Source: Candidatus Helarchaeota archaeon
GTDB taxonomy: Archaea > Asgardarchaeota > Lokiarchaeia > Helarchaeales > RDOG01
Length of the DNA stretch: 64,000 nt
Assembly: GCA_029838215.1 (NCBI GenBank)
Contig: JALGVI010000012.1
Span: 1-64,000 of the forward strand
Direction: 5' to 3'
The notes under the pieces were generated by a model that ran no database searches, was not told the origin of the DNA, and saw nothing but the letters and a program-made list of their open reading frames with translations. The stretch's first letter is position 1; every line of letters begins with the position of its first letter. The position numbers and the translations under genes are program-made. Positions 38,281 to 42,320 of the stretch are shown here, one piece after another.

Positions 38281-39495
38281 ATGAGCGTTATTCCGATGCA
38301 TGACTTTTTTGAAGAAATTAAAGAAGAAAAAACATTGACGATGACGGGAAATTATGCGGTGGCAGGCGCAGTTACGCAGACAGAGCCAGATGTTATTTGT
38401 GCTTTTCCCATTACGCCTCAGACACAATCAGTAGAAGGACTAAGCGACGTGGTTAATCATGGACGTTTAAAAGCGGCATTTGTGAATGTCGAAAGTGAAC
38501 TGGCAGCCATTTCATACATTACTGCCGCCGTTATTGCAGGAGCTCGCGGCTTTACGGCGACGGCTTCTCAAGGATATCTATTAATGCACGAAGGACTCCC
38601 CATGGCAGTTGGATGGCGAGCACCGATATACATGCTCATCTCAAACCGCGCGTGGAATGCCCCTAACCTGAGTATTTGGAACAGTTGGGAAGTCACGCTG
38701 GCAGATCACGGCTGGAACAAGATTTTTTCAGAAAACGTCCAAGAAACTTATGATGCAGCAATTCTTAGTTGCATGATATCAGAAAAAACACTTTTTCCGA
38801 CCTGTTTCTGTCATGATGGGTTTATCATTTCCCATTCGGCACAAAAATTCAAGGCAATCCCTGACGAGACCGTGAAGAAACTCACACCTCGCCGACCCAG
38901 GCATACCGTGCGAACGGATAATCCCGGCTGTTGGGGAGGTATAGTCACACCGGATTACTTCATGGAACAACGTCGCGCCTTGGATTTGGCAAAGAAAGAT
39001 GTCCCTAAAGAAATCGATGCAATGTTTGACCTGTTTGCGAAGGAAACGGGAAGAAAATATTCGTCAATTGAAACCTTTAACATTGAAAAGGCGAAAACCG
39101 CAATAGTCACGATGGGTTCCATGTGCGGAACGATAAAACAATGGATGCGAAATGTTCCCGATATCGGACTCATCAAGATACGAACTTATCGTCCATTTCC
39201 TAGCGAAAGACTACGAAAAATTATTGAAGATAATAAAATTGAAAAATTGATAGTGCTTGAGAAAAATGATGCACCGGGCGCGCCCGTACCTCAAGTCACG
39301 CAAACGATCCTCCCCGTAACTTATCCGCTCGGCACGATCGTTCATTCTTTTATACCCGGGCTCGGTGGAAGAGACGTGACTGTTGATGAGCTTAATGCTG
39401 CAAAGAAACGAATGGAAAAGATTAACGACATGAAAGGAGACCTGTACGAATACTTGGGTGTCCGAATAAAACAAGGAGTGATTGAAGGAGAGTAG
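38281..39495 (+). CDS. porA: 2-oxoacid (pyruvate/ketoisovalerate):ferredoxin oxidoreductase alpha subunit
   Basis: TGNYAVA, AFPITPQT, VESELAA, ATASQG.LLMHE, DGFIISH, RTYRPFP and GLGGRD. Confidence 0.93.
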   Translation: MSVIPMHDFFEEIKEEKTLTMTGNYAVAGAVTQTEPDVICAFPITPQTQSVEGLSDVVNHGRLKAAFVNVESELAAISYITAAVIAGARGFTATASQGYLLMHEGLPMAVGWRAPIYMLISNRAWNAPNLSIWNSWEVTLADHGWNKIFSENVQETYDAAILSCMISEKTLFPTCFCHDGFIISHSAQKFKAIPDETVKKLTPRRPRHTVRTDNPGCWGGIVTPDYFMEQRRALDLAKKDVPKEIDAMFDLFAKETGRKYSSIETFNIEKAKTAIVTMGSMCGTIKQWMRNVPDIGLIKIRTYRPFPSERLRKIIEDNKIEKLIVLEKNDAPGAPVPQVTQTILPVTYPLGTIVHSFIPGLGGRDVTVDELNAAKKRMEKINDMKGDLYEYLGVRIKQGVIEGE

Positions 39496-39499
39496 AACA

Positions 39500-40606
39500 A
39501 TGTCTTTAGAACAAAAATTTAAAGCTCGAGTCATTAAAGTCAAGGACATCCTTTCTTGGAAAACCAATAACTACCTGCTTTATTTCAACTATGATAATGA
39601 AGCATTCATGAACACGGGGATTCAAGAATCCGGTTCGACACCCTTTGGAGCTTCCACGACAACAGGACCTGCAGGAAAAGCCATTCCGGGAAAGATTGGC
39701 ATGAAACAAGACATCATAGAAGGATTTGCTTTTCTCGGCATGCAATCTGCATTCCTTGCTACGGCCTCAACCGCTTATCCTGCAGATTTTATCGGAAAAG
39801 TCGTCGAAGCATTAAAAACACCAGGAGCCGCTTTCATTCAGGTCTTGGCATCATGCGACCGCGGATGGCGCCATCCGATTAACATCTCCAATAAGGTGAA
39901 CAAGCTTGCAGTAGATTCTGGTTTCTGGCCTTTATACACGATTCGCGTTAAAAATGGGCGTCCCACGTATGCACTGAATAAAAAGATAAATTATGATACG
40001 ATGGAAGAAAAACTCATTGAATACTTGAACCTCATGGGACGTTTCCGTCACTTGGTTAAACCTGAATTCAAGGAACAAACAATACCTTTAGTTATTGATG
40101 CAGTCAAGGCGCGTGCTGATAATGTCATTAAACTAGTTAATACATTCGGTAATCCAGAACATCAACTAGAAACATACACCGTGAACTTCAAGGAGATTCC
40201 GCCACAAGAGATCTTGAATCCAGGACATGGACTATGTCAGGGCTGTGGGTGCGGCATGGCTTTAAATCAATTATCTCTTGCAGCTCATTGGGTCGCAGGA
40301 AAAAATATCATCGTGACCAATAACACGTCATGTTCTGAAGTCTCATTCTCGAAAGATGATGTTCCTAATTATAAAGTGCCTTGGGTTCACCACTTGTTTG
40401 AAACATGTGCCACGACCGGCGATGCCATTGCAACAACATACAGGATCTTAAAAGCAAAAGGTCTCTACAAAGGAGAAATCCCAAGAGTGATCGCCATTGG
40501 TGGAGATGGCTCCACTTATGATATAGGATTTCAATTTCTAAAAGCAGCACTTCATCGAGCCGGAACATTTGGCATCATGAACCCACTCATCAAGGACATT
40601 AGCTGA
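39500..40606 (+). CDS. porB: 2-oxoacid:ferredoxin oxidoreductase beta subunit, circularly permuted
   Basis: YDNEAFMNTGIQ..STP.GA.TTT..C.RGW..LAVDSGFWPLY comes first; GHGLCQGCG..SC.EV..VPW.H..GGDG.TYDIG comes last. Confidence 0.9.
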   Translation: MSLEQKFKARVIKVKDILSWKTNNYLLYFNYDNEAFMNTGIQESGSTPFGASTTTGPAGKAIPGKIGMKQDIIEGFAFLGMQSAFLATASTAYPADFIGKVVEALKTPGAAFIQVLASCDRGWRHPINISNKVNKLAVDSGFWPLYTIRVKNGRPTYALNKKINYDTMEEKLIEYLNLMGRFRHLVKPEFKEQTIPLVIDAVKARADNVIKLVNTFGNPEHQLETYTVNFKEIPPQEILNPGHGLCQGCGCGMALNQLSLAAHWVAGKNIIVTNNTSCSEVSFSKDDVPNYKVPWVHHLFETCATTGDAIATTYRILKAKGLYKGEIPRVIAIGGDGSTYDIGFQFLKAALHRAGTFGIMNPLIKDIS

Positions 40607-40643: not shown

Positions 40644-41027
40644 TTGGTTTTATCATTCAATAAACTTAAAATCCTAGATAGTGGCATATTTCTTACTAGT
40701 TCAAATCAGATGTTCCGGTTAGGAGGATTGAGACTTTTGCCGTTCGTGAGAAGAGGTCGAAAAATTAGCGTTGGATCGCATCACCAACATTTACTGTTAG
40801 ACATGAGCGATAAAAGAAATTGGAAATTTCTACTGAAATTACATGAGCTTGGACACATCATAGTGACTTACTTTGACTACGATGCAAAAAAAGAAATCTT
40901 AAAGGATCTTTATCTTTCGGTGACGATTCATGGCGAAACTTATTGGACATCTCAATTTAAGAAAAAAGAATTGAAGGAGTTCATTGATTTCCTAAAAGCG
41001 AACGAAATAGATCTCATATACATCTAA
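40644..41027 (+). CDS. Hypothetical small protein (start uncertain)
   Basis: Fills the gap between porB and the M28 gene; contains HELGH. Confidence 0.45.
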   Translation: MVLSFNKLKILDSGIFLTSSNQMFRLGGLRLLPFVRRGRKISVGSHHQHLLLDMSDKRNWKFLLKLHELGHIIVTYFDYDAKKEILKDLYLSVTIHGETYWTSQFKKKELKEFIDFLKANEIDLIYI

Positions 41028-41042
41028 CAAGGAAGATTTTCA

Positions 41043-42320
41043 ATGAATTTCGGTCAAGACGAACAAATAAATAAAAAACAAATACTTGATTTTGCCACGA
41101 ACCTGAGCTTTCCAAGAAGGAATGGCTCCGAAGGGAATCTCAAAGCACGAGAATTGTTGAAGTCTTGGTTTTCGGATCTCGGTTTCAAGAACATCAATAC
41201 AGAATCATTCAAATGGAATCCTCGAATTCGGCCATTATATTTTCGTTTTTTTACGGTCCCTTTAACCATTCTAATGTTCGTGGAAGTCATTACCATTATC
41301 GAGTTGATTTTTCTCCTTGTTTTCTCGGGGATTTTTACCATTCAATTAATTTGTGAGTTCACAACGGGTTGTACCATCATGATCTTGATGATAATCCTGT
41401 TTTCATTCGGACATGTTCTCACGAAATTGGCTTTTCTACACCGCGAAAGATATTTTTCATCGAAATTACGGGATGCCCAGAACATCTCAGTTGAGATTGC
41501 GGCAGAGGAAAAGCCGAAATCTAGATTGGTCATCATCGGCGCGCATTATGATAGCATAAACACGCGTTTCGGAGATATGACGAACATAATTTTATATTTG
41601 GGTAGGTTTGCGGGTGTTTTTTTTGTTTCAATTCTCACGTTAATCTTGCCATTCGTAACGATGATCCTGCAATTCTTCCAGTTGATGTCCGTTTCCATCA
41701 TTCTCAACACGATTCTTCTCATTATCGTCTTATATGCCGGATTCTCATTAATGGTGAGTTTTTTCAACACTCTTCATAATAAAAGTGAAGGGGCCATTGA
41801 TAATGCATCTGGAGTTGCAGTCGTCCTAGGCTGTGCAGCATGGTTAAAGAAAAACCCACCAGCAACCGTAGACGTGATTTGTGTCCTATTTGATGTTGAA
41901 GAAGAAGGGTTGATCGGTTCGATGCATTTTGCAAGCAATAATTTGAATAAATTCGAGAAATATGGCATTGAAAAGGTTCACATGATTTGCTTGGATGGTC
42001 CTGGCTCGAAAGGAAAGCTTGGATTTTCCGGCTCCTTTGGTTTCCCGATCAAAACTACGACAGACCGCGGAATTATCAATGAATTACAGCAAGAGGCCAA
42101 CAAACTTCGGTACCAAACGAGAAAAATATGGTTTCCTTATGGTGGCTCCGATCACGTTCCATTTGGCATGTTGAAAATAGACTCCTGCCATTTCTTCTCC
42201 ACGTCCATCGTCTCGAACACCATATCTGATAAAAAAGAGCTTCTTAATGAGGAAAACCTGTTTCGTGCAACTAACATCGTGATCAATTACATTAGAGAAC
42301 TGGATTCAGGCGAAATTTAG
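41043..42320 (+). CDS. Membrane-embedded M28-family peptidase-like protein
   Basis: GAHYDS, GAIDNASG, FDVEEEGLIGS and SDHVPF, with TM inserts. Confidence 0.88.
   Translation: MNFGQDEQINKKQILDFATNLSFPRRNGSEGNLKARELLKSWFSDLGFKNINTESFKWNPRIRPLYFRFFTVPLTILMFVEVITIIELIFLLVFSGIFTIQLICEFTTGCTIMILMIILFSFGHVLTKLAFLHRERYFSSKLRDAQNISVEIAAEEKPKSRLVIIGAHYDSINTRFGDMTNIILYLGRFAGVFFVSILTLILPFVTMILQFFQLMSVSIILNTILLIIVLYAGFSLMVSFFNTLHNKSEGAIDNASGVAVVLGCAAWLKKNPPATVDVICVLFDVEEEGLIGSMHFASNNLNKFEKYGIEKVHMICLDGPGSKGKLGFSGSFGFPIKTTTDRGIINELQQEANKLRYQTRKIWFPYGGSDHVPFGMLKIDSCHFFSTSIVSNTISDKKELLNEENLFRATNIVINYIRELDSGEI

Follow-up and report, generated by a model that had tools for sequence, protein, structure and literature searches.

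The analysed window, a stretch of 64,000 nucleotides from a genome of a Candidatus Helarchaeota archaeon (contig JALGVI010000012.1 of assembly GCA_029838215.1, positions 1 to 64,000), contains a gene at positions 39500..40606 that is predicted to encode a protein of 368 residues (P0125) homologous to PorB, the beta subunit of pyruvate:ferredoxin oxidoreductase (PFOR). Compared to PorB the two halves of this protein are encoded in swapped order. The gene therefore seems very likely to represent a natural and functional circular permutant of the beta subunit that binds thiamine diphosphate (ThDP) and the proximal [4Fe-4S] cluster in a pyruvate-type 2-oxoacid:ferredoxin oxidoreductase (OFOR), its function being deduced from sequence comparison. 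The chain starts at the strand with the DNE/Asn half of the Mg-ThDP motif and continues through the canonical C-half, from where a short join leads to the canonical N-arm and to the N-half with its CxxC...C cysteines, which ends with strand, GDG and helix. The last helix would lie beside the first strand as in ordinary PorB, so that the GDG...N site would be rebuilt from the two ends of the chain.

According to a phmmer search against the PDB the protein matches both PorB of Methanosarcina acetivorans (9bt4_C, E 1.3e-42) and the beta subunit of oxalate oxidoreductase (OOR; 5c4i_C, E 2e-42) in two blocks of reversed order. Query residues 240-360 correspond to residues 5-116 of 9bt4_C and query residues 32-204 to its residues 119-282, while residues 235-360 and 32-197 of the query correspond to residues 7-128 and 131-289 of 5c4i_C, respectively (subtracting 6 from these query coordinates yields the numbering of the 368-residue protein that starts at the ATG). 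The NCBIfam models of PorB, VorB, OOR-beta and PadI likewise each match the protein in two stretches, all of them under the cut-off, with 220.3 bits for the PorB model NF008819 (cut-off 405) and 192 and 183 bits for VorB and OOR-beta, which are below their own cut-offs. Only positions 75-151 of the 151 positions of the Pfam profile TPP_enzyme_C (PF02775) were matched (residues 32-121, 27.8 bits, cut-off 21.9); the first half of this profile has its counterpart at the opposite end of the protein, where it was left unreported by the Pfam search. The swap of halves had been proposed in a first-pass annotation made by a model from the sequence alone, and it is borne out by the reversed phmmer blocks and by the NCBIfam models matching in two stretches; all motifs named there are present in the open reading frame (ORF).

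The motifs of the protein follow the order DNE...C119...C246xxC249...C278...GDG instead of the collinear order CxxC...C...GDG...DNE...C that defines PorB. The Mg-ThDP residues D336, D32 and N33 are all present but non-contiguous, with DNE lying 31 residues from the N-terminus and GDG 32 residues from the C-terminus. Throughout 98 aligned members of the family (53-87% identity to the protein of the window), Y31, D32, N33 and E34, residues 38-42 (N38, T39, G40, I41 and Q42), C119, C246, C249, C278 and G335, D336 and G337 are invariant. The four cysteines align to the four nearly invariant cysteines of canonical PorB, and their retention, as well as that of the Mg-ThDP residues, agrees with what had been read from the single sequence. 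Based on the alignment to the PFOR of Desulfovibrio africanus, in the numbering of the literature, we take D336 to be equivalent to the Mg ligand D963, N33 to T991 and N38 to N996, and the cluster ligands C246, C249, C278 and C119 to C812, C815, C840 and C1071.

The gene and its upstream neighbour, including all features described for both, are located on the forward (+) strand. The protein begins with a new N-terminal extension (residues 1-21; 39500..39562), which is predicted to form a strand (residues 9-13) and a short helix (14-18). The canonical C-half (residues 22-216; 39563..40147) matches residues 119-282 of 9bt4_C and reaches from the strand before DNE to the C-terminal helix. It includes YDNEAFMNTGIQ (residues 31-42; 39590..39625), which contributes the Asn half of the Mg-ThDP motif as well as the Asn that contacts the substrate and aligns to MDTEVYSNTGGQ of the D. 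africanus PFOR, and Cys119 in ASCDRGW (39854..39856), the fourth ligand of the proximal cluster, aligned with the 'atC' Cys in PFOR and with C225, which is nearly invariant in the canonical alignment. The old C-terminus and the old N-terminus are joined by residues 217-228 (40148..40183) between the homology blocks. The first-pass annotation had described a linker of about 25 residues at this position; a linker indeed exists, but most of it belongs to the end of the canonical C-terminal helix and to the N-terminal arm, and only about 12 residues lack a canonical counterpart. The canonical N-half (residues 229-355; 40184..40564; residues 5-116 of 9bt4_C and 7-128 of 5c4i_C) comprises the N-arm, two proximal cluster ligands in C246-x-x-C249 (40235..40246), aligning to the CxxC of PorB and PFOR, the third ligand Cys278 in NNTSCSEV (40331..40333), aligning to 'TGC' of PorB, and the strand-GDG-helix unit, in which G335-D336-G337 (40502..40510), aligned with GGDG in PorB, OOR and PFOR, contributes the GDG half of the Mg-ThDP motif. 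The new C-terminal tail (residues 356-368 plus stop; 40565..40606) has no significant homology and contains a conserved 'MN'.

GDG-x(25-30)-N is the textbook contiguous fingerprint of ThDP enzymes, and a cut inside this motif had already been noticed in the sequence. The position of the cut was resolved by a motif hidden Markov model (HMM) built from the GDG-to-NTGIQ region of 62 canonical sequences. Its alignment to the C-terminus of family members extends as far as 'alerg(e)(di)' and that to their N-terminus sets in at '(e)rgedilyvcydNe', the two sharing no more than 2-4 residues. Homology thus ends and restarts at one 'ERG(H)D' spot, and the break therefore corresponds to the turn between the helix following GDG and the strand preceding DNE. 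In the ThDP fold the GDG and DNE loops are situated at the cofactor end of neighbouring strands, whereas the helix-to-strand turn is at the opposite end. Since the turn faces away from the cofactor, the cut lies within the sequence motif and yet distant from the cofactor: its placement between GDG and N is supported by the motif HMM and by the structural models, but it is less drastic than a cut "inside the motif" may sound. No significant remnant of a duplicated segment was detected, neither as overlap in the motif HMM nor by hhalign of the extensions, in line with the earlier observation. The N-extension has no significant match to canonical PorB. Its hhalign score of 11.7 to the canonical N-arm is marginal compared to shuffled sequences (8.0 +/- 1.5, with 3 of 100 reaching this value), and the extension bears no resemblance to the remainder of the protein. 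In the C-terminal tail the conserved 'F...MN' was aligned to 'DF...YMNTG' by hhalign at near-zero confidence.

The AlphaFold2 model of the permuted subunit, calculated with the family alignment, reached a predicted template modelling score (pTM) of 0.90 and a mean predicted local distance difference test score (pLDDT) of 84.9, compared to a pTM of 0.94 for a canonical Asgard PorB (G007, P0276). After rotation the secondary-structure lists of both models match one for one, the canonical elements E135-140 to H302-322 being equivalent to E26-32 to H195-216 of the permuted model and H28-38 to H121-130 to H250-266 to H343-355. The permuted model additionally contains a strand followed by a short helix in residues 9-18, another strand (223-227) and a helix turn at 357-360, and the N-extension shows block-mean pLDDT values of 85-98. 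The exact rotation of the secondary structure together with the confident single-domain model suggests that the GDG and DNE sites lie close in space. Foldseek retrieved PFOR, OOR and PorB with a probability of 1.00 (E 7e-10 for 9bt4_C), yet with a TM-score by query of only about 0.4 and one half placed, and VIA-align reported Z scores of 12-13.4 over about 180 residues, with residues 22-214 of the model spanning domain VI (984-1170) in the M. thermoacetica PFOR rows. The superposition of the whole domain is not confirmed by either program, as sequential aligners place only one half. A shape search in the ESM Atlas yielded no full-length match (best TM-score by query 0.51), which says little because only large clusters are represented there.

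The intact reading frame stated in the first-pass annotation is open over its full length and under purifying selection. In comparison to the nearest orthologue (87% identity, locus L069) the proportion of nonsynonymous differences (pN) is 0.078 and that of synonymous differences (pS) is 0.88, the latter being saturated. The values of the segments without canonical counterpart are similar, with pN 0.089 and pS 0.76 in the N-extension, 0.063 and 0.67 in the C-terminal tail and 0.115 and 0.77 in the window around the join (residues 199-236). Overall pN is 0.06-0.12 in each segment, i.e. in both extensions, the join and both cores.

The distribution of the permuted gene was surveyed in 400 species genomes of the phylum Asgardarchaeota, 160 of which belong to the class of the window (hereafter the Loki/Hel class) and 239 to others. 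Collinear homologues of the permuted protein, either full-length or truncated by contig ends, were detected in 129 of the 160 genomes of this class at 52-87% identity, whereas outside the class the gene was present in one of 239 genomes only, on a 2.8-kb contig (G075:C23) that is probably mis-binned in another Asgard class. Among 5.8 billion proteins 843 matches were found; the best 120 are 265-375 residues long, nearly all of them about 360 residues, with a query coverage of 94-98% in nearly all cases and 54-87% identity, and originate from NCBI, JGI, ENA and Logan. In a set of 1.84 billion representatives at 50% identity the permuted family forms one full-length cluster plus fragments; the remaining 149 best representatives include 127 collinear proteins and no independent permutant. 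The gene is found in the complete chromosomes of Promethearchaeum syntrophicum MK-D1 (CP042905.2) and Candidatus Lokiarchaeum ossiferum (CP104013.1), in the chromosome CP070831.1 of a complete metagenome-assembled genome (MAG) and in the single contig of 4,361,485 bp of Candidatus Harpocratesius repetitus. The Asgard origin assumed in the first-pass annotation is confirmed by these records and by the protein matches. The submitters of the other MAGs holding the gene labelled them variously as Hel-, Loki-, Hermod-, Thor-, Hod- or Odinarchaeota and in one case as 'Nanopelagicaceae', while phylogenomic grouping puts nearly all holders into one class. The latter case is a MAG labelled 'Candidatus Nanopelagicaceae bacterium', in which the permuted gene is located on contig DATKTW010000155.1 (L084); this contig is probably mis-binned. 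A few genomes contain further incomplete copies that correspond to the last third of the permuted gene (62-66% identity; G177:C42:8076-8402 and G273:C60), either no more than a few kb from the full gene or on small contigs.

The gene directly upstream of the permuted gene (38281..39495) is predicted to encode a porA-like alpha subunit of 404 residues comprising PFOR domains I and II, the pyrimidine-binding partner of the beta subunit. It matches the Pfam families POR_N (E 2.4e-51) and PFOR_II (E 1.5e-15), the NCBIfam model PorA_Arch (307 bits) and PorA of M. acetivorans (9bt4_B, 196 bits), and has kept PorA-like catalytic Glu, Thr and Arg motifs (FPITPQT, NVESE and SNRA...LSIWN). The Thr in FPITPQT replaces an Arg of OOR (YPIRPYT), which in the alpha subunit of that enzyme ('PIRP') binds the second carboxylate, so that the characteristic Arg of OOR is absent. 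Since the alpha subunit scores best with PorA, retains its motifs and carries Thr instead of the OOR Arg, the system is presumed to be a three-polypeptide enzyme for pyruvate or a small aliphatic 2-oxoacid. The alpha gene precedes the permuted gene directly in 26 of 28 sampled loci, and class genomes without the permuted beta also lack this alpha. In relatives the operon usually consists of genes encoding a gamma-delta fusion (POR plus Fer4_21 domains, 285-336 residues) with the gamma (domain III) and delta (2x[4Fe-4S]) modules, the alpha subunit (about 405 residues) and the permuted beta subunit. In the window porA is preceded by a gene encoding a CBS-domain protein, and the contig of the closest relative (L069) shows the same order of CBS, alpha and beta genes. 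The genome of the window additionally contains canonical porB paralogues on contigs C86 and C29 and many gamma-domain genes. The permuted beta subunit would assemble with the gamma-delta fusion protein and with the alpha subunit from the gene directly upstream; the complex would convert pyruvate or related small 2-oxoacids oxidatively to acyl-CoA and CO2, and the electrons would presumably pass through three [4Fe-4S] clusters to ferredoxin. In the MAG G258 (JBHLLM010000034.1, L033:1085-3229) residues ~1-317 of alpha and the permuted beta from residue ~26 onwards are joined in a single open frame of 715 residues that lacks most of alpha domain II; this frame may reflect a real fusion or deletion or else an erroneous assembly.

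In strain MK-D1 the locus shows the order gamma-delta, alpha, beta and histone. The genes DSAG12_00810, DSAG12_00809 and DSAG12_00808 of this strain are listed as PFOR (EC 1.2.7.1) in '2-oxoacid/pyruvate degradation' with 314, 372 and 286 reads per kilobase per million mapped reads, respectively, and DSAG12_00807 as HMf-1 (Imachi et al. 2020, PMC7015854 supplementary tables). As the order of the locus matches that of these four genes, DSAG12_00808 was identified as the permuted gene, and the MK-D1 orthologue, as identified by gene order, is thus an expressed gene published as PFOR beta. The genes DSAG12_00455-00458 were also considered as the MK-D1 orthologues and were rejected because gamma and delta are encoded by separate genes there.

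In the phylogenetic analysis, for which the halves were re-ordered before tree building and 17 permuted sequences were sampled, the permuted sequences form one clade (Shimodaira-Hasegawa-like approximate likelihood ratio test, 100). The clade is placed among canonical PorB proteins of other Asgard classes that are encoded in gamma, delta, alpha, beta operons, while the canonical paralogues of the own genomes fall into the other half of the tree. Separate trees of each half gave the same nearest canonical neighbours, i.e. PorB of other Asgard classes. The permuted form thus appears to have arisen once near the base of the Loki/Hel class.

Several observations weigh against the interpretation as a functional, pyruvate-type permutant. 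The stem of the permuted clade is long (1.35 changes per site) and support for the deep placement of the clade is weak (82-91); block pLDDT values of the AlphaFold2 model fall to 53-61 across residues ~31-70, the Mg-ThDP/substrate loop, which may only reflect the missing cofactor and partners; and the spatial proximity of GDG and DNE is deduced indirectly from the model. The gamma-delta orthologue is unlinked in the genome of the window, where it is encoded on another contig (C103:25463-26332, reverse strand, locus L017:1453-2397; 51% identity to that of a relative), with a contig end about 250 bp away and a convergent gene after it. Furthermore, the beta subunit scores below every NCBIfam equivalog cut-off, so its substrate or partner use may have shifted, and DSAG12_00808 was identified by gene order, not by sequence. 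It could also be argued that ordinary porB pieces were joined in the wrong order during assembly or binning, given that the window originates from a MAG of 170 contigs with 6.2% contamination. Such an artefact has practically no probability left, because the same order of halves recurs across genomes from many studies in the class and in the four complete or single-contig genomes, the homologues are collinear over 94-98% of their length and the join region is under purifying selection. Misassembly, which the first-pass annotation had itself considered, is therefore excluded by conservation in more than 100 genomes. The long stem and the sub-threshold family scores might alternatively indicate a decayed or non-catalytic paralogue that no longer binds ThDP or the cluster and has a structural or regulatory role or is being lost, as about 19% of the class genomes are without permuted beta and the canonical paralogues on C86 and C29 could do the work. 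Taking into account, however, that every cofactor-binding residue is invariant in the 98 sequences, that pN/pS is about 0.09, that the permuted gene always co-occurs with its own alpha and gamma-delta genes and that the MK-D1 orthologue is expressed at the level of its partners, we regard decay as very unlikely. A permuted and active enzyme with another job is a less remote alternative, though still rather improbable: it might convert branched-chain, aromatic or other 2-oxoacids, work in the synthase direction or differ in cofactor loading or oxygen tolerance. The latter two would be conceivable with the chain ends closing the ThDP site; moreover, alpha and beta share no more than 33-45% identity with their nearest canonical counterparts in Asgard archaea, the PorB and VorB scores of beta are similar (220 and 192 bits), the KEGG labels in MK-D1 mix Vor and Por names and the genomes hold several other OFOR sets. 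However, the alpha subunit retains the PorA-type Thr, Arg and Leu-Ser-Ile pocket residues and has its best score with PorA, and no feature of the sequences points to a particular alternative substrate.

With regard to the origin of the permutant, the most likely route seems to be a tandem duplication of an Asgard-type canonical porB, followed by in-frame fusion and loss of the outer halves. This route is favoured because the old C-terminal helix continues into the old N-arm via about 12 residues, as would be expected from a trimmed head-to-tail duplicate. If the marginal likeness of the N-extension to the canonical N-arm is real, it suggests that the original start was kept and that the N-half was deleted internally. 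Alternatively, half-genes might have been separated by fission, reordered and fused again, or the halves of two paralogues might have been fused. Database proteins that start at the C-half (P0195, P0199, P0240 and P0245) could be taken as products of such a fission, and no tandem-duplicate porB intermediate was found. However, the abrupt beginning of these proteins within the motif helix suggests truncated gene calls, very little sequence separates the old C-terminus from the old N-arm, and both halves share their nearest canonical relatives, which argues against a chimera of two paralogues. We therefore consider a fission-based origin unlikely, and duplication remains the preferred route.

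Canonical archaeal PorB genes were found to carry inteins (Intein_splicing plus LAGLIDADG_3) at two sites of the ThDP motif, either directly after GDG(G/A) or between 'YV' and 'CYDNE(AY)' (P0127, P0135, P0162, P0142 and P0191). The breakpoint of the permutation lies between these two sites, about 7 codons from the second. It is a quite speculative and improbable idea that intein homing seeded the permutation by an endonuclease break with illegitimate repair in a duplicated porB, which was then fixed as a change defining the Loki/Hel class. The intein-bearing P0127 (L070:4136-6694, GCA_029933415.1) is at the same time the canonical sequence closest to the permuted protein by score (44% identity) and is encoded in a gamma, delta, alpha, beta operon. 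Its ThDP motif is likewise interrupted in the gene, a few codons from the breakpoint of the permutation; in contrast to the permuted gene it is interrupted by an intein that carries a LAGLIDADG endonuclease and splices itself out, which results in a collinear PorB.

Among known systems PorB (9bt4 chain C) is the best match in sequence and fold (VIA Z 12.3), sharing the Mg-ThDP residues, the four cysteines and a PorA-type alpha partner with the permuted subunit. In contrast to PorB the permuted subunit has swapped halves with GDG at the C-terminal and DNE at the N-terminal end, 21 additional N-terminal and 13 additional C-terminal residues, and fused gamma and delta partners. The OOR of Moorella thermoacetica (5c4i), a three-subunit OFOR, has the layout of three polypeptides in common with the permuted system, and the gamma-delta protein of the relatives matches the OOR 'delta' model along the greater part of its length with residues 46-299 (profile positions 57-304 of 316; 85 bits, cut-off 230). 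The permuted beta is nearly as similar to OOR beta as to PorB, but OOR beta is collinear, and the alpha subunit scores 120 bits with OOR compared to 196 bits with PorA. Within the ThDP family the domain orders PP-PYR-CFX (transketolase and dehydrogenases) and PYR-CFX-PP (decarboxylases) have been called a circular permutation, and the PP domain has been described as six helix-turn-strand repeats with the strand order 213465, the fourth of which binds the diphosphate (bioRxiv 10.1101/2021.03.21.436335). As in the permuted beta subunit, modules of the ThDP fold are rearranged there with the active site remaining intact; however, whole domains are moved, whereas the permuted subunit is cut inside the PP domain in its fourth repeat, splitting GDG-x(25-30)-N. 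In full-text literature searches no description of a permuted OFOR beta subunit was found, and the term 'permut' is absent from the examined MK-D1 paper and supplements (PMC7015854). The first-pass annotation knew of no described example; the gene itself has already been annotated and used as PFOR beta in MK-D1, and only the permuted topology seems to have gone unremarked.

A natural and long-lived family with the ThDP fingerprint split between the chain ends indicates that the PP domain tolerates a central cut, which is useful for understanding protein evolution and for engineering split or permuted ThDP enzymes. In the metabolic model published for the first Asgard archaeon in culture the enzyme set serves the oxidative breakdown of pyruvate and 2-oxoacids, a step central to syntrophy-based scenarios of eukaryogenesis. 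JGI and the MK-D1 annotation name the protein as PFOR/OFOR beta, whereas most homologues, including that of L. ossiferum, are named 'hypothetical protein' by NCBI because the swap halves the profile scores. PFOR can therefore come out as incomplete in automated reconstructions. The permutation, being a single event that is hard to reverse and limited to one class, is a candidate rare-genomic-change marker for Loki/Hel relationships, and the gene could help to flag mis-binned contigs.

At the locus itself porA ends with the stop codon TAG at 39493-39495 and the permuted ORF with its stop codon at 40604-40606. Two starts are possible for the permuted gene, TTG at 39482 or ATG at 39500. The ATG was taken as the start, as in the first-pass annotation, because the Shine-Dalgarno-like sequence GAAGGAGAG (39484..39492), which was read from the sequence within the end of porA, precedes it by 8-16 nt and because the family alignment begins near its Met. 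Downstream of the permuted gene an ORF of 127 residues without Pfam match (40644-41027) and a gene for a protein of 425 residues (41043-42320) were detected, the latter with a first half that appears hydrophobic by eye and an M28/M20 peptidase domain in its second half; neither of the two was seen in the loci of relatives that were examined.

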